Sequence record: JN673056
Origin: Escherichia phage PhaxI
Direction: 5' to 3' (one strand)
DNA: 64,000 nt
Shown: piece after piece, positions 2,775 through 48,685 of the stretch
Layout: the number at the start of each line of letters is the position of its first letter
Numbering within the stretch: position 1 is the stretch's first letter
Position numbers and translations under genes: made by a program
Notes under the pieces: generated by a model
Database searches by the model: none
What the model was told of the DNA's origin: nothing
What the model saw: the letters and a program-made list of their open reading frames with translations, nothing else

Positions 2775-4358
2775 ATGAATGCTATAGAAAAACGTATTCT
2801 CAAGCTGTTGAATGAGAACAGAAGTCAAAGTTCAATAGCCAGTGAATTGGGCGTACCGCGCTCAATGATACAACGCGTGTCGGATAAAGAACTGGGAGTG
2901 GATCCAGCTTCGATTAAGTCTCTGACCACTGAACAGATTCAAGAAATACAAACCAAGAGCAGCAAAGGTGAAAGCAATTCTTCTCTGGCATCAGTTTATG
3001 GCGTCAGTGCCAAAACAATTGCCCGCGCCCTGATGGTTCGTATCATCAAAGAATCTAATAACGTGGTCGTGATTTCGCCAATTAAAGAATTGACTGAAGA
3101 AGGGAAAATCCCCGACACCTATGAAGTTCTGGAAGGTTCGGTGTCTGTCGATTCTGAAGGCGAAGAATGGTATGTTGGCCGTTTCCTGGAAAACCAAACA
3201 GTGTTTATCTGTATGCGTTACGATAGCTCTGCTGCTATTCAGGCCAAACTTTTCAGAAGCGAAGAACTGAAACCGTTAGAAACTCGGTCAAGCCGCTTCA
3301 ATGAAGAAAATATTTCGCCGTTAGCAGAACTGGCGACAGCACTGGTTGATGGCGTTACCAAAGTCAATGACGGCGTGGTAATCAGTGTACAACATGACGG
3401 CGAAACATACCCGATGCGCGGTTCCCTTGATGCCCGTCGGCGCGTGGGTTACTTTGATGTAATTTTAGGCCGTACACTTCGTCTGGCATTGTCATCCGTA
3501 TTATTCGTGGTCAAGACTGTTGCAGTTGTTGGAGAAACAGGCGACAAGCAAACTCAGAATTCATTTAATGAAAAAGATCTGTCTGTGTTCCTGAACGAAC
3601 ACCAGATCATGATTTTGCCGGAAAGTATCGTGATCGTGGTTGATGGTAAACCGGAAACGATCACAACGAGCCACCAGGCGTATGACCGTATTGTTGAAGC
3701 GATTAAAAATCGTGACGTCAAAACAGCGTACACTCTGATGAAACCGCGTGAAGCCATCAAACAATTCACCACAGGCATGGTTGACCTTTCAGACAATCGT
3801 GTTCGCTGGGGTGGCTATGATATCACCGGAACTTCCGTTGCCAAACGCATTTTGGCTTTGGCATTAAAAGGCGATTATCCGAACTTGGAACGCTTGGGTC
3901 GTTTCCTGGACAAAATGTTCCAAAACCCGAGCGCCGCGCTGGTTCAGTCCGGTCGAATCTATGAATTCATGGCATATTCGGATATCGAAATTCATGAAGA
4001 CGGTGATATCATCCTGTATAAATCCGTTCGCGGTAACTACATGGACAAGCGCACAGGAAAAGTTAGTAATGCTCCTGGCACCATTGTTCGAATGGCTCGC
4101 TCATTTGTGAACGATAACAACAAAGATCTGTGCTCCTATGGTCTTCACGTTTGTTCTCTGGCTTATCTGAAACAATGTTTTGGTAGCCTAGGACAACGCG
4201 TTGTCCGTTGCAAACTGAACCCGAAAGATATCGTGTCTATCACTGATGATTATGGCTCCAGTAAAATCCGCTGCTGTGAATATCTGGTATTAGACGATTA
4301 CACCACGGAATACAACCGCCAACATAAATCCATTGATGTTGAAGGTCTATACAAGTAA
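2775..4358 (+). CDS. rIIB: rIIB-like protein
   Basis: 527-aa ORF; N-terminal HTH-like repeats (SIASELGVPRSMIQRV, SLASVYGVSAKTIARAL); C-terminal CSYGLHVCS...RVVRCKLNPKDIVSI...KIRCCEYLV matches the conserved rIIB C-terminus as recalled; immediately downstream of rIIA. Confidence 0.8.
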   Translation: MNAIEKRILKLLNENRSQSSIASELGVPRSMIQRVSDKELGVDPASIKSLTTEQIQEIQTKSSKGESNSSLASVYGVSAKTIARALMVRIIKESNNVVVISPIKELTEEGKIPDTYEVLEGSVSVDSEGEEWYVGRFLENQTVFICMRYDSSAAIQAKLFRSEELKPLETRSSRFNEENISPLAELATALVDGVTKVNDGVVISVQHDGETYPMRGSLDARRRVGYFDVILGRTLRLALSSVLFVVKTVAVVGETGDKQTQNSFNEKDLSVFLNEHQIMILPESIVIVVDGKPETITTSHQAYDRIVEAIKNRDVKTAYTLMKPREAIKQFTTGMVDLSDNRVRWGGYDITGTSVAKRILALALKGDYPNLERLGRFLDKMFQNPSAALVQSGRIYEFMAYSDIEIHEDGDIILYKSVRGNYMDKRTGKVSNAPGTIVRMARSFVNDNNKDLCSYGLHVCSLAYLKQCFGSLGQRVVRCKLNPKDIVSITDDYGSSKIRCCEYLVLDDYTTEYNRQHKSIDVEGLYK

Positions 4359-26533: not shown

Positions 26534-27961
26534 TCATGCCGCTTCCAACAACACCAAAATATTTTCGATATATGCTTTCTGGATAGCATAGACTTCAGCC
26601 AGTGTATTAGCGACTTTCTTGTCTGTGCGTACTTCAACGAGACGTGGAAGGAATAGAGACTTCATGGCGTCATCGGTTTTATCCTGTACGCCATTAGAGA
26701 GCACGGCGGCAATCTTACCAATGAAGTCCTCTTGGTTTTCCCACATTCGTAGTCTCAACTCATCTGAGATCCCCGATACGCCAACAACTAAGAGGCTATC
26801 AGAGGTCTTGCAGAGGAGAGATCCAAATGTCTTGGCGTGCTTCCCTTTCTTATCGGCCTCGTTGAAGCCAACGATTTCAAGGTCACATTCTACTTCCATT
26901 TTTAGCTTTAACCCTTCAGATGATGTTCCATCTTCCCAAGGCATATCTGCGGCCTTACAAATCGTGCCTTCTTCCCGACGAGCCAAAGCGTCTTTGAAGT
27001 GTTCGACAGCTTCTTCAAATGAATGAACAACACGGGTTTCTTGAACCTGAACCAGTCCGTCATCCCCTTCGAACAACTGTTGTATAATATCAAAACGGCG
27101 CTCATATGGGGTGTCCACACGCTGAGCATTGAACCAATTATCATACGGCACAACGTCCCATACCCGATAGATCACCTTGTAACGATCTTCCAGGGGTTCA
27201 CCCGTTTGGATAACACTGTTGAGCTTACCATTGCCGATAGCCCGAGGCAACACTGTATTCGTTTTCAGATCAATGACGAGCAGTTCACCATGGAAGACGC
27301 TTTCACCAATCCCCGCATCGTAGATCAGGTCTTTGAAAACCAATGATAGGTTATCAACGGAACCACCCGCAATAAGAGAACCGGAACGAGAACGAATCTC
27401 TGGGTCTCTTCCATAACGACAGATGATGTTGGCAAACATGCCATCTGACTTCAGCTGGCTGAAGACGCCGCGCTTGAAGTCCATCTTCTTCAGCAAGTCA
27501 ATCGTCATGTTATCATAACGGTGATATGGAAGGATATTAATCAGACGCCCTGTACCACCTGCTGCGTTGAATGCTGCGTTTATACCTTTCTCGGCAATTC
27601 CCGCTTTGATGTCTCTGTCGAGTATAATTTGTATCAGGGTATGGTAATCCGGATGGATGTTGGTCGCGGCCTTCGCAAGTTCTTGATCTGCCTTCATCCC
27701 ACCGATCTTGCGTTCGGCCATCATATCAAGAACGTCATAAACCTGATCCCAGCTACCGACAACGCCGCGCGAGAGCATGCGAGGGAATGCGTTTAGATTG
27801 AATTGAGTGCGGTAATAAGAACGCATCGGATCGTAGACGTATTGAAGGAAATCAACCAATTCTGGGTTGTTTCTGAACGCCTCGGTCAGCACAGCTTTCT
27901 TGGCGTTGGTGCCTTTGGTATCGCGAAGATTTTGAATTATTTCTAAAAGAGGAAGCATCAT
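26534..27961 (-). CDS. 30: ATP-dependent DNA ligase
   Basis: 475 aa; adenylation motif I KSDG (QLKSDGMF), motif IV-like EGTICK, motif V-like LLCK; size like T4 gp30. Confidence 0.75.
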   Translation of the reverse strand: MMLPLLEIIQNLRDTKGTNAKKAVLTEAFRNNPELVDFLQYVYDPMRSYYRTQFNLNAFPRMLSRGVVGSWDQVYDVLDMMAERKIGGMKADQELAKAATNIHPDYHTLIQIILDRDIKAGIAEKGINAAFNAAGGTGRLINILPYHRYDNMTIDLLKKMDFKRGVFSQLKSDGMFANIICRYGRDPEIRSRSGSLIAGGSVDNLSLVFKDLIYDAGIGESVFHGELLVIDLKTNTVLPRAIGNGKLNSVIQTGEPLEDRYKVIYRVWDVVPYDNWFNAQRVDTPYERRFDIIQQLFEGDDGLVQVQETRVVHSFEEAVEHFKDALARREEGTICKAADMPWEDGTSSEGLKLKMEVECDLEIVGFNEADKKGKHAKTFGSLLCKTSDSLLVVGVSGISDELRLRMWENQEDFIGKIAAVLSNGVQDKTDDAMKSLFLPRLVEVRTDKKVANTLAEVYAIQKAYIENILVLLEAA

Positions 27962-28014
27962 GTGTCTCCAGGGTTATTCGTCATGCTATTATAACCCTAG
28001 AGACTTCAATAGAT

Positions 28015-28401
28015 TTATTTGCTGCGTCTTTTTCTGTTGTTCGGTGGTGTGGCAGAGGTGAAAGATTCCTTCCAACTCTTGAATTTTTCAATCAGGGATT
28101 CTTTCCCCATCTCACCGTTGGAAACATCATGGATATAAGCAAATGCGTCATACCCATATCCTGGTAAAGCAGAACAGATTCGAAGGCGAACCAAAGATTC
28201 TCCCACAGAAACCAAATAATGATCGCGACGATCATTCAGAGCATAATGATTGTCATGGAATTTGTCGATAACAACACAGTTCTGGGGTTCGGCGTCAATT
28301 GCCAGCCCGTTGGCTTCGCTACCGCCGCGCCCAAGGGTGCATCCTGGGAATAATGTTTCTACAAGTGTGGTCATAGTCTGATCCTTCTGTAAAGTTCCCA
28401 T
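28015..28401 (-). CDS. hypothetical protein
   Basis: 128-aa ORF; GRGGSEANGLAID glycine-rich segment. Confidence 0.4.
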   Translation of the reverse strand: MGTLQKDQTMTTLVETLFPGCTLGRGGSEANGLAIDAEPQNCVVIDKFHDNHYALNDRRDHYLVSVGESLVRLRICSALPGYGYDAFAYIHDVSNGEMGKESLIEKFKSWKESFTSATPPNNRKRRSK

Positions 28402-45746: not shown

Positions 45747-46553
45747 ATGAATTTACCATCATTGCCCAAAACTGAGAGAACACATAAAAGTGATTTCTGG
45801 CCGACTGTGATCAAATACCGCGCCTTTACAGCAGGGCAACAGACCATGTTACTTCAGGTTGCTGATCCGAACACTCCTATGAGTGAGCGCGTGGCAACAT
45901 TGGAGCAACTATTTGACAGTTGTGTTGATGCTGGCGTTCCCTTTAGTAAACTGCCAATCGGTGTTACTGAAGAAGTATTTTTAAAGATGCGCTGTATATC
46001 TATCGGCGAGGTCATGAAGATACGTTACAAATGTAATAACAAAGTTCAAGCCGAAACCAATGAAGGTGGTGAAGAACCAGTTTCTGGCCTTAAAGATTGT
46101 GGTCAAGAGCTTGTGTTACCGATCCCGCTCAATCAAGTAAAATGCGTGTCCCCAGAAGGCTTCAGGGAGACGTTTGATCTACCAGGTGGTTATCATATAA
46201 AGATGCGCCAGCCGTCCTTCTCGGATGCCTCAGTGCTTAATGAAGCATCCTCTGTTGAACAAATGATTGCCACCTTTATCGATTGTCTGTATGACGACGA
46301 TGGTCAGGTTTGGAAGGTGGAAAATCCGGCTGAACCTGGTATCGATCCAGAAGTTGCTAAAGAACGCCAACGCATTAAGGATGAATTTGTCAAATGGGTC
46401 GGGGACAATATTGAATCTGAGATTGTTCAGGACATTTCGAATGATTTCTTTAAAAAGATTCCGCGTATTCGTTACGCGACAAAAATTAAATGCCCTTCGT
46501 GTGGGAAAGAACACGAAGTCAAATTTAACAGTGTCACCGAGATTTTCATTTAA
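45747..46553 (+). CDS. late-expressed protein with C-terminal zinc ribbon, probably structural
   Basis: 268-aa ORF behind a late promoter; CPSCGKEHEV C-terminal motif. Confidence 0.5.
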   Translation: MNLPSLPKTERTHKSDFWPTVIKYRAFTAGQQTMLLQVADPNTPMSERVATLEQLFDSCVDAGVPFSKLPIGVTEEVFLKMRCISIGEVMKIRYKCNNKVQAETNEGGEEPVSGLKDCGQELVLPIPLNQVKCVSPEGFRETFDLPGGYHIKMRQPSFSDASVLNEASSVEQMIATFIDCLYDDDGQVWKVENPAEPGIDPEVAKERQRIKDEFVKWVGDNIESEIVQDISNDFFKKIPRIRYATKIKCPSCGKEHEVKFNSVTEIFI

Positions 46554-46704
46554 TTTTTGAAATTGATTTACTCTCCTATTTTGTGATGTGTGACGAATTA
46601 AAGGCACACGGCTATAGCATATTTGAAATCAGTGAATCGATGCCGTGGCATCTTGATTTGCTTACCGAGACACTGAAAATTAGATTGTCTAAGAAATCTT
46701 CCAA

Positions 46705-46729
46705 CCCCACGTAATGTGGGGTTTTCTTT
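46705..46729 (+). terminator. Rho-independent terminator
   Basis: CCCCAC-GTAAT-GTGGGG followed by TTTTCTTT, about 150 nt after the stop at 46553. Confidence 0.6.
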
Positions 46730-47030
46730 GCTTACATGTTTTATAGGTTAAGACAGGAACGTTTAACCTTAAATTGCTATAACACCGTTGTTGCTGAAGT
46801 AAGTGTTGTGTAATTGGGGTTTGAATTTGTTTTGAAGCAAAAATAATCCTTTTCTACGCATGTTCTGAGGTGTACAGTATTTTCCTCGCCTTTATGCCTC
46901 CATGGCATTGGAATGGGACTGCCTGTCAAGGCGGTGTTACGAGCTTCAGCGAGTAGGAACGAAAAGAATAAAGGTTGAACGGAAGCAGAGCTTCCTATAA
47001 TATATTATTCGACAGATTTCAAATCCCCGC

Positions 47031-47038
47031 CATAAATA
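47031..47038 (+). promoter_or_regulatory. late promoter-like element (CATAAATA)
   Basis: ATAAATA core 22-35 nt upstream of the two candidate gp5 ATGs. Confidence 0.35.
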
Positions 47039-47059
47039 TCACATGATTCTAATTGACTA

Positions 47060-48685
47060 ATGGGTTTCAATATGTTAGACAACTTGCGTTGGTTTTACGG
47101 GCGCGTTGAAGACGTGAATGATCCCGATCAAAACGGGCGCGTCGCAGTACGCATCTATGGGGTACAACACGAGGATACCACTCTCCTGCCTACAGAATTA
47201 TTGCCTTGGGGTAAAATGCTTATGCCAGCATCTAACGCCTCCTCGGCAGGTTTAGGCTGGTCTCCGACGGGTATCACTGTCGGCTCTGACGTCATGGGGT
47301 TTGCTTTGGATGAAGCATATCAGAACATCCGTATTGCATGGGTATGGCCAGCAGCAACACCAACAGATGGGTCAGATACAAACCCATTGGCGCTGGGTCA
47401 GGTCGTTCAATCTATAGAAAGGCAGAAGTATAATGCCGTCGAGAATGTTCCTGTTAAGATTGAGGATGAACCGCAACCGGATCCACAACCACCAGTAGAC
47501 GGATATGATCCTGAGAAGTGGATGACCGTGGCTCGTGGGGAATTGGGTGTCAAAGAATATTCTGGTAAGTTCAATAACAACCCAAGGATATTGGAATATC
47601 ATAAGACAACTTCCCTGGGGGCTTCAGAAGATGAAGTTAGTTGGTGTGCGTCGTTTGTTGGATGGGTTCTGATACAGGCCGGATATACATCAACACGTTC
47701 TGCTTTGGCTCGTTCATATTTACAATGGGGGTCTCCTCTGTCAGAACCACGTTACGGCGCTGTTGTAGTGTTCCGGCGCGGGAACAACCCGACATTCGGT
47801 CACGTTGCATTCGTTCAGAAATTTGACGCCAACTACGTTTGGTGTATCGGGGGAAACCAATCCGATTCTGTGAAGGTGAGCCGTTTTAGCCGCTCATCCG
47901 TGTTGGGTTATCGTTGGCCAGGTCCAGCAACTACAGCTTCAGCAGCTCCGGCACAACAAAACGGTAAATGGTCTGAACCTATTCCAGATCGTACCCCGAA
48001 AGTCCAAGAAACACCGCCTCCTTCTGGTCGTGTTCAGGATATTGACAATACAGGAGAGGTATCGGTTCCTTCGGCTGGGGGGTCTCGTTATCCATACAAC
48101 AATGTTATGGCTTCTCGCGCTGGGCATATTATGGAGGTCGATGACACTCCAGGCGGGGAACGTTTGCATTGGATGCACTCTTCTGGGTCTTACAAGCAAA
48201 TGCTTCCTGACGGTGATGTTGTTAATAAATCAGTCAAAGATCATTATGACCTGACGATGTTCGACAAACGTTATTATGTGGGGGGTGATCATAACCTGAC
48301 AATTGGTGGGACTGAAGTACAGCGTAAGAAAGGAGAAGTTTACCACTTACACTCTTCTAACTATTCCAATGTGGTCGCTGGAACAGCGTTGATGAAATTT
48401 TCCCAATTGGCTGAGATACAGGCACAGAACGTGTTGCGTCTCATCTGTGAAATGTTTGAAGTGTCTAACACTTTGAAGGTTCCTAAGATACTGGCAACTG
48501 AAATAATTTGTGATAAATTATCGGTCGCACAGACTATTGAAGGCAACATCAAATATGCTGAAGGCGCTGGTCGCGCCGCCTCACGTGCGGGGGCAACTCC
48601 TGTAACAACTACAGGCCCAGGTCCAATTGATATAAAACCGGAGTTAGAGGATAACGGTGGCAATTTTGGTGGTAAAGGCGCATGA
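47060..48685 (+). CDS. 5: baseplate central spike / hub protein gp5-like with CHAP peptidase domain
   Basis: N-terminal OB-fold signature NLRWFYGRVEDVNDPDQNGRVAVRIYG like T4 gp5; central Cys/His domain (SWCASFVGW ... TFGHVAFV) typical of CHAP/NlpC-P60 hydrolases; Gly-rich C-terminus. Confidence 0.7.
   Translation: MGFNMLDNLRWFYGRVEDVNDPDQNGRVAVRIYGVQHEDTTLLPTELLPWGKMLMPASNASSAGLGWSPTGITVGSDVMGFALDEAYQNIRIAWVWPAATPTDGSDTNPLALGQVVQSIERQKYNAVENVPVKIEDEPQPDPQPPVDGYDPEKWMTVARGELGVKEYSGKFNNNPRILEYHKTTSLGASEDEVSWCASFVGWVLIQAGYTSTRSALARSYLQWGSPLSEPRYGAVVVFRRGNNPTFGHVAFVQKFDANYVWCIGGNQSDSVKVSRFSRSSVLGYRWPGPATTASAAPAQQNGKWSEPIPDRTPKVQETPPPSGRVQDIDNTGEVSVPSAGGSRYPYNNVMASRAGHIMEVDDTPGGERLHWMHSSGSYKQMLPDGDVVNKSVKDHYDLTMFDKRYYVGGDHNLTIGGTEVQRKKGEVYHLHSSNYSNVVAGTALMKFSQLAEIQAQNVLRLICEMFEVSNTLKVPKILATEIICDKLSVAQTIEGNIKYAEGAGRAASRAGATPVTTTGPGPIDIKPELEDNGGNFGGKGA

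Follow-up and report, generated by a model that had tools for sequence, protein, structure and literature searches.

What does the interval between the baseplate genes gp26 and gp5 of a ViI-like phage contain? In a 64,000-nucleotide (nt) stretch of Escherichia phage PhaxI (JN673056; the window), which belongs to the genus Kuttervirus (Ackermannviridae, CBA120/ViI-like), an earlier note had marked positions 46554–47059 as a non-coding region of about 0.5 kb and proposed a structured RNA, a long 5′ untranslated region (UTR) regulating gp5, a replication origin or a remnant of a mobile element or intron. We find that the interval is in part ordinary, with a gene, a terminator and a late promoter, and in part holds a new conserved RNA motif family. 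With less than even confidence, we read it as a composite regulatory region whose RNA acts as a promoter-proximal, cis-acting leader or attenuator. Genome comparison establishes the small gene, the terminator, the late promoter motif and the plus-strand structure with its paralogs; transcription from a dedicated promoter and the role of the RNA we infer.

Many Kuttervirus genomes, among them CBA120, SFP10 and Det7-type phages, match the 506-nt interval at 99.8% identity; with Taipeivirus, Limestonevirus and Agtrevirus the identity is ~73% across ~450 nt of the query. Its counterpart in CBA120 is an unannotated gap between gp26 (baseplate hub) and gp5. Such a gap was seen in all genera examined and measures ~370–520 nt (~500 nt in the enteric genera and Miltonvirus; ~370–460 nt in the Vibrio phages examined, 200–400 nt by their annotation). 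Within the ~103 kb of CBA120 annotation that was read, this gap (~518 nt) is among the four largest, together with those ahead of gp45 (710 nt) and gp6 (352 nt) and one of 2170 nt in the tRNA region. Synteny holds across the seven enteric-lineage genera read, and the region can be aligned at the sequence level in Kuttervirus, Taipeivirus, Limestonevirus and Agtrevirus.

The interval itself is real: gp26 ends at 46553, and with the conserved gp5 start the gap spans 46554–47071. Neither strand of 46554–47059 holds an open reading frame (ORF) of 60 amino acids (aa) or more starting with ATG, GTG or TTG, as had been noted, but the first third is coding, and the truly non-coding portion amounts to ~340 nt (46730–47071). 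Identity between genera is 0.4–0.6 over 46747–46866 and rises again to 0.70–0.88 over 46867–46943, compared with ~65% for the gp26 coding sequence. This conservation across genera speaks against unconserved filler. A mobile-element or intron remnant is likewise not supported, given the synteny, the cross-genus alignment, the lack of an Rfam intron or ribozyme match and the lack of an endonuclease gene.

The conserved RNA fold upstream of gp5

The structured core lies on the plus strand at 46885–46957 (copy A). A covariance model of the core scores 82 bits both here and on a paralog upstream of gp6 (copy B); a partial copy C lies upstream of gp45. The core comprises the P2 hairpin (46894–46898 with 46904–46908), a pseudoknot in which the P2 loop (46900–46903) pairs with 46913–46916, the P3 hairpin (46919–46924 with 46929–46934) and the P4 hairpin (46937–46944 with 46949–46956), in which CGAGC (46940–46944) faces GCGAG (46949–46953) with two tandem G·A pairs mid-helix. 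Two inverted repeats pointed out in the earlier note are located here: ATGCC/GGCAT at the two strands of P2, and GCCTG...AGGC as CTGCCTG/AAGGCGG at 46919/46928.

We examined the pairing in 17 distinct A and B sequences (18 pairs, 306 pair cells). All 306 cells held standard pairs and six of the 18 pairs had changed on both sides; in a control with partners slid by 1–3 columns, pairing fell to 25–51%. Every helix of the core shows compensatory change. P2 reads AUGCC/GGCAU in copy A and GCAGCC/GGCUGC or GGCUGU in copy B, a change from AU/UA to CG/AU between paralogs. The P2 loop CCAU pairs with AUGG four bases downstream and is replaced by CCCU/AGGG in both Taipeivirus paralogs (A-U to C-G), which supports an H-type pseudoknot in which both stems have comparative support and all cells pair. 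P3 holds one U·G pair that is invariant in the A/B set, a C-G to U-A change and a U-A/U·G/C-G variation; Klebsiella phage Menlow, in which copy B is present, adds a new P3 variant (U·G to C-G). The closing C-G of P4 is U-A in Aglimvirinae, and C-G to U-A changes beside a tandem G·A occur in copies A and C (in P4) and in copy B (in P1). Copy B of Kuttervirus has an insertion, a 22-nt hairpin, placed precisely within the P4 loop. The loop sequences CCUCC(A/C)U and GGAA(U/G)GG are strongly conserved. As the U·G and G·U wobble pairs are compatible with the plus strand only, the RNA would read that strand.

An A-rich linker joins the core to hairpin P5 (GGAAGC-AGA-GCTTCC, 46981–46995, plus strand), which is followed directly by TATAATAT (together 46981–47003); the sequence after the stem reads UAUAAUAU. 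P5 is 100% paired, with two of its six pairs changed on both sides. It is GGATGC/GCATCC in Taipeivirus and GGCGGC/GCCGCC in the B region of Erwinia phage Bue1, between constant flanks (AACG...TATA(A/G)TAT). P5 may act as a leaky terminator or attenuator; alternatively, it may be a hairpin ahead of a −10 box.

These correlated changes bear on the proposal that the conserved motifs are DNA-level binding sites, with repeated CGAG motifs and palindromes through which a phage regulator would control baseplate and clamp genes, in the manner of operators or enhancers. Each element does hold 4–6 CGAG direct repeats, and the P5 palindrome sits between TTGAAC and TATAAT boxes. However, the correlated changes fit pairing, coupling the first base of one motif with the last of the other; wobble pairs occur in the helices; and the P5 loop has 3 or 4 nt, with the stem almost fully replaced in Bue1 while the flanks are the same. 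Such sites match the covariation poorly, and we consider them very unlikely.

A permissive Rfam 15 covariance scan of copies A, B and C returned only noise (E ~1 or higher), and ARAGORN found nothing in the window. The core is a conserved plus-strand structure that matches no Rfam family, which bears out the structured-RNA candidate in modified form, as a fold conserved by covariation. It is not coding, judging from indels that break all frames and from paralog B, which lacks the ATG of the short ORFs. Two candidate leader peptides were rejected on these grounds: MPPWHWNG... (from 46894), whose frame is broken by inter-genus indels and whose ATG paralog B lacks, and MALEWDCL... (from 46902), whose frame is broken likewise and whose ATG is missing in Taipeivirus. 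Pairing of a 5′ CUCGC with GCGAG is part of the minimum-energy fold but shows no covariation and is broken by a deletion in IME250. A hammerhead was rejected as well (CUGAUGA in only one Aglimvirinae variant, UUGAUGA or GUGAUGA in the others and GUUACGA in Kuttervirus; no Rfam match), as was a kink-turn (P4 is a symmetric CGAGC/GCGAG without a bulge).

Promoter-like module, paralogs and a proposed role of the RNA

Directly upstream of copies A, B and C in all enteric genera lies a promoter-like module, recognised by its architecture across copies. In copy A it spans 46839–46878 on the plus strand and consists of an A-tract (46839–46843), the T-rich box TTTTCTAC (46850–46857), 15 nt and TACAGT (46873–46878); the spacer varies between 15 and 17 nt and ends in G. 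Ten hexamer variants were found (TACAGT, TATGGT, TATCTT, TATCGT, TATGCT, TATCCT, TAATAT, TATTAT, TACTAT and TACACT). T1, A2 and T6 are constant in all ten while the inner bases vary, which agrees with the TAnnnT of a sigma-70-type −10 hexamer; this information pattern places a predicted transcription start at ~46885, ~9 nt before P2. The T-rich box agrees with the −35 consensus TTGACA at two to three of six positions. A genome search found the motif at three sites only, which points to a dedicated promoter, and a general early promoter class was rejected on this count. A GAGG/CCUC hairpin around TGTACAGT was also rejected, being better explained as a −10 box.

How widely does the element occur? 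BLAST revealed a second locus per genome, copy B, in the divergent intergenic region upstream of the wedge gene gp6, which heads an operon of wedge, structural protein and tailspikes TSP1–4. The covariance model of the core further found the partial copy C in the 710-nt gap upstream of gp45 (sliding clamp), and a covariance scan of the window with filters off yielded no further copy. In CBA120, copies A, B and C lie at ~46.5, 133.2 and 90.7 kb, three per genome, and the family consists of two full copies (gp5, gp6) and a partial third (gp45) in the genome. A pattern scan of IMG/VR gave 35 real copies, all on Ackermannviridae-sized contigs and mostly two per genome. A gp26-based IMG/VR scan added no genera. 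Pattern scans of metagenome and genome collections with GCCTCCNTGGCNNNGGAANGG returned, among the matches listed, only chance hits in G+C-rich bacteria and are uninformative on distribution.

Copy C has the promoter-like module and P4, and it lacks the pseudoknot and P3; it also has a long hairpin that contains two tandem-G·A motifs and serves in copy B as the 5′ hairpin. Limestonevirus and Taipeivirus conserve copy C, with compensatory changes, and in Klebsiella phage PWKp5 no hairpin stands between it and gp45. The 710-nt uvsW–gp45 gap that holds copy C is unannotated in CBA120 (90508–91217, minus strand; 27509–28218 of our locus L081); on its opposite strand lies an ORF that is annotated as ORF121 in LIMEstone1 and not in CBA120. 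Erwinia phage Bue1 lacks the pseudoknot core upstream of gp6 but has there the promoter-like module, a P5-like hairpin and two hairpins with tandem G·A pairs. The Vibrio relatives carry GGGG-UGAGC-GAA-GCGAA-CCCC hairpins just past TATAAT boxes, before gp5 and upstream of gp6; in them the same GAGCGAAGCGA hairpin lies past a TATAAT box and ahead of the ribosome binding site of gp5.

Two further observations concern these copies. Vibrio Ackermannviridae repeat two types of promoter–hairpin module, TATAAT...GGGGUGAGCGAAGCGAACCCC-AUAAUCCCCUUU and CTATATT-GGGUUACGAAGUAACCC-AUA(A/G)UCCCUU, at several loci (L329 at 100–160 and 285–320, L052 at 3565–3625, L077 at 2330–2385 and L078 at 2255–2290); both types resemble the PeSL cassettes discussed below. 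Copy B of an IMG/VR contig (3300045988_107072; L031) bears the P3 CUGCCCGCAUAGGGCGG of its own genome's A copy (L040), while copy B of Kuttervirus, Limestonevirus, Agtrevirus and IME250 has CUGCCUGUCAAGGCGG as P3; the contig's copy B suggests gene conversion between the paralogs.

Between P5 and gp5 stands the late promoter. The earlier note had seen a late-promoter-like element before gp5, and this is well founded: the T4-type octamer CATAAATA (47031–47038, plus strand) is invariant in 11 aligned genomes, and (C/A)TAAATA(C/T)C occurs 30–45 nt upstream of at least 10 late genes of the same phage type. Resembling TATAAATA and recurring before late genes, the motif precedes gp26, gp22, gp18, gp14, gp6, TSP3, TSP4, orf211 and orf209, and homologs of gp55, gp33 and gp45 are annotated in CBA120. 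The gp5 start follows 41 nt later, and the folded structure, which lies upstream of this promoter, would therefore not be part of the 5′ UTR of the late gp5 mRNA. The earlier proposal of a long 5′ UTR regulating gp5 survives only as that of a regulatory 5′ region. The length of the gap is all that favours a long 5′ UTR of late gp5 mRNA, an intron or mobile-element remnant or unconserved filler; given the position of the late promoter and the cross-genus conservation, we hold this group of explanations to be extremely unlikely.

We instead favour a leader arranged as follows. About 130 nt past the terminator of the small upstream gene, the dedicated sigma-70-type promoter-like module would start a plus-strand RNA at ~46885, ahead of the gp5 late promoter and independently of it. 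Over its first 70 nt this RNA would fold into the H-type pseudoknot, P3 and P4 with its tandem G·A pairs, followed by the A-rich linker and P5. In this reading a pre-late transcript begins with a cis-acting leader whose folded 5′ domain may serve as a binding platform for a protein or RNA polymerase, and may also protect the 5′ end; this domain would decide between a stop at P5 and read-through into gp5. The copies at gp5, the gp6/tailspike operon and gp45 would form one small regulon, and late gp5 expression would proceed separately from the octamer at 47031. A leader is favoured by the location of copy C, where the pre-late gene gp45 needs a promoter, by the lack of a hairpin separating copy C from gp45 in PWKp5, and by the Vibrio hairpins inside the gp5 leader.

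Several points weigh against this interpretation. In folding energy the element does not stand out (z = −1.56), and the opposite strand gives a similar value. The number of independent covariation events is small, and the paralogs appear to exchange sequence. The −35 region at 46839–46878 is poor and a generic promoter scan did not report this site. The U-tract after P5 is interrupted, and TATAAT could be a −10 box instead. The GAGCTTC direct repeat of the earlier note, located at 46941 and 46988, would as GAGCUUC permit an alternative P4-versus-P5 switch pairing in Kuttervirus only. With a strong late promoter between the element and gp5, a leader is unnecessary for late expression. Finally, the literature on Ackermannviridae transcriptomics and non-coding RNA offered nothing relevant and no transcript data.

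The same late promoter, by making read-through unnecessary, speaks for stand-alone small RNAs of ~115–125 nt that end at P5 (~47005) and act in trans with their paralogs. The order of promoter, structure, hairpin and U/A-rich tail would suit such RNAs, as would the strong primary-sequence conservation of the two loops, whose exposed CCUCC or GGA motifs are possible trans contacts. Yet the tail of P5 is a poor U-tract, copy B has no hairpin after P4 that is conserved across genera, copy C of PWKp5 has none, the Vibrio relatives place their hairpin within an mRNA leader, and no host or phage target was identified. We regard stand-alone RNAs as possible but doubtful.

The placement of the modules also invites a comparison with replication origins such as T4 oriF/oriG and the T7 primary origin, where a promoter-driven transcript would prime DNA synthesis or form an R-loop, with hairpins in the RNA or in the displaced plus-strand DNA. 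Three modules per genome stand before functionally unrelated genes, two of which have late promoters of their own, and an A-rich, A+T-rich stretch follows P4. GCGAAGC is present in many copies; Hirao and colleagues are reported to have shown that it forms a DNA mini-hairpin of unusual stability, which occurs at phage origins. Against this, inspection showed no iterons and no marked unwinding element (A+T makes up just ~62% of the stretch past P4), copy A of Kuttervirus and of Taipeivirus does not keep the GAA loop, and T4 origins need no conserved RNA structure. We consider origin modules rather improbable.

The CBA120 genome paper left the early and middle signals of these phages unidentified; ViI-like phages lack MotA and AsiA, and only a few promoters could be recognised (PMC3184105). 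No element of this kind appears in the literature searched. A promoter-plus-RNA module before the baseplate hub, the wedge/tailspike operon and the sliding clamp offers a concrete entry to early and middle control, and it is relevant to the engineering of tailspike cassettes in phages that are widely developed for biocontrol and engineering. A bolder and, in our estimate, unlikely proposal is that the module at gp5, gp6/tailspikes and gp45 is the missing pre-late control system of Ackermannviridae: the RNAs could either reprogram host RNA polymerase for terminator read-through without MotA/AsiA-type factors, or act as primers that define replication origins.

The small gp51-like gene and neighbouring signals

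The first third of the gap is occupied by an overlooked conserved small baseplate gene of the gp51-like/phrog_9633 family (46553–46714, plus strand; 53 codons and a stop), to which profile matches and the ratio of nonsynonymous to synonymous polymorphism (pN/pS) point. The earlier note had doubted a 42-codon ORF in this place for lack of a Shine-Dalgarno sequence. That lack is confirmed, but the ORF is the 3′ part of the conserved 53-codon gene; a small protein gene thus covers the first 160 nt of the region and not the remainder.

Where does this gene start? The frame that holds the 42-codon ORF is already open before the gp26 stop, and its third-position substitution pattern sets in exactly at the codon that overlaps this stop, ATT (46553–46555), with one A in common (TAATT). 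At the overlap position Aglimvirinae have ATG, from which a 49-aa ORF is annotated, and so do four Vibrio Ackermannviridae; Kuttervirus and Taipeivirus have ATT, and Miltonvirus has ATC. Codons 2–11 have a pN/pS of 0–0.35, no higher than that of codons 12–44, and are under purifying selection, including in the ATT genera; the N-terminal stretch is the most conserved 80 nt of the gp26–gp5 region (0.85–0.95 identity). A canonical start (ATG, GTG or TTG with a Shine-Dalgarno sequence) was not found at the N-terminus, which begins at ATT, or at ATC in Miltonvirus. We propose that the gene is translated by coupling to gp26 through the UAAUU overlap, with termination–reinitiation at an AUU start as the comparative data suggest. 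AUU is a known rare bacterial start codon, as in E. coli infC; its use here is proposed from comparative data only.

Alternatively, the protein could arise as a −1 frameshift extension of gp26, or from the internal ATG alone (46586; 42 aa). The −1 frame is open 4–12 codons ahead of the gp26 stop and a TTTTCAT is invariant; the internal ATG is invariant in the enteric genera and is the start annotated in BSP101, which records only the 42-aa version (most Kuttervirus records examined leave the gene unannotated). However, no slippery heptamer is present at the gp26 end, relatives place an ATG exactly at the overlap position, the Vibrio versions have no internal Met, the internal ATG has no Shine-Dalgarno sequence, and the selection on codons 2–11 extends to the ATT genera. 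We consider this pair of alternatives unlikely, and a −1 frameshift, while possible, less likely than the AUU start. The gene would represent a clean natural case of start codon switching, between AUG and AUU/AUC, at a stop–start overlap.

The protein matches the phrog_9633 profile end to end (E = 2e-36 to 6e-37). It also matches phrog_634, "baseplate hub assembly catalyst" (E = 1.6e-3), as do six of eight family members (best E = 5e-8); coverage is limited to profile positions 60–107 of 121, and full-length similarity to T4 gp51 was not found. A Pfam search gave no match. phrog_634 is the T4 gp51 family, and T4 gene 51 comes after gene 26, as does the small gene here; T4 gp51 has 249 aa, compared with 53 aa for this protein. 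A function in baseplate assembly would fit.

Two oddities were seen within this gene. In Enterobacter phage EspM4VN (L007, ~1620), a 1-nt deletion, either a sequencing error or a real variant, gives the small ORF a frameshifted tail of 59 aa. The codons M-P-W-H (ATGCCGTGGCAT, 46640–46651) form an inverted repeat like P2 (ATGCC-TCCAT-GGCAT), a second ATGCC/GGCAT copy at 46640/46647; its likeness to P2 is probably a coincidence.

The small gene would end in an intrinsic terminator, AACCCCAC-GTAAT-GTGGGGTT followed by TTCTTT (46703–46729, plus strand). A terminator scan found it where the earlier note had placed one, ~150 nt past the upstream stop. The 8–9-bp stem spans 46703–46723 with the stop codon of the small gene (46712–46714) in its loop, and it changes in a compensatory manner to AACCCCGC/GCGGGGTT in Taipeivirus and AATCCCGC/GCGGGATT in Aglimvirinae. 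With its G+C-rich hairpin and T-run it has the sequence features expected of a Rho-independent terminator, and one is annotated at this site in Magnus, KWBSE43-6 and LIMEstone1. Beyond it lies a conserved block (46730–46783, plus strand) made up of GCTTACATGTTTTATAGGT (46730–46748) and a possible extended −10 element, TGcTATAAC (46775–46783); TGT...A.AGGT and TATAAY are nearly invariant in five genera. The spacing of a GTTTAAC 10 nt upstream of TGcTATAAC is wrong for a −35 element. A(T/C)AGGT from this block recurs upstream of copy B.

On the far side of the gap, gp5 (baseplate hub, tail lysozyme; 47072–48685, plus strand) most likely starts at 47072 with ATGTTAGAC, a start that all genera share and that the annotations of CBA120 and BSP101 adopt; the ORF finder places it at 47060. 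At its near side, the C-terminus of gp26 (46487–46520) contains a conserved CPxCG...H motif resembling a zinc ribbon, for which Pfam and PHROG zinc-ribbon matches are weak and sub-threshold. Records labelled Enterococcus phage Efm 3-10 (OR844942, OR844944) and Pseudomonas phage Pa-sanjiao (MN871475) are 94–100% identical to Kuttervirus here; their host labels look wrong, or the assemblies are contaminated.

Comparison with known systems

Which known systems does the element resemble? The PeSL/PmSL cassettes of T4-like phages, or promoter-early stem-loops (PMC2839356; PMC4122927), likewise repeat a composite of A/T-rich upstream region, sigma-70-like promoter and stem-loop at several genome sites, and the Vibrio Ackermannviridae modules, in which TATAAT precedes a GGGG...CCCC hairpin, resemble them most. 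PeSLs, however, are numerous and lie in hyperplastic regions beside ORFans, whereas the element has three copies before the core genes gp5, gp6 and gp45. Their stem-loop lies upstream of the promoter and acts as a terminator; here the structure lies downstream of the promoter, measures ~70 nt and contains a pseudoknot and G·A helices. Membership in this cassette family was rejected on copy number and on the position of the structure past the promoter.

HK022 put and lambda nut boxB are processive antitermination RNAs. They too have few copies per genome, a promoter upstream, a terminator-like hairpin downstream and stems that covary between paralogs, but the element shares no sequence or architecture with them and matches no Rfam family, and an N-like protein was not identified; with a put/nut-type site, only the position (promoter, element, hairpin) appears compatible. 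The leader of T4 gene 32 mRNA contains a pseudoknot that is a protein nucleation site. There, as here, an H-type pseudoknot at the 5′ end is followed by an A/U-rich stretch; the element differs in its downstream gene, in the additional P3 and P4 and in lying upstream of the main (late) promoter. The T4 origins oriF (uvsY) and oriG (34) are few sites at which a transcript from a pre-late promoter has a role beyond expression of the downstream gene. The element likewise occurs at few sites with a promoter, and only copy number and promoter are compatible: T4 origins combine a MotA-dependent promoter with an unwinding element and, unlike the element, have no conserved RNA fold. Architecture, copy number and position set the element apart from PeSL, from put/nut and from the T4 gene 32 pseudoknot, the nearest systems described.

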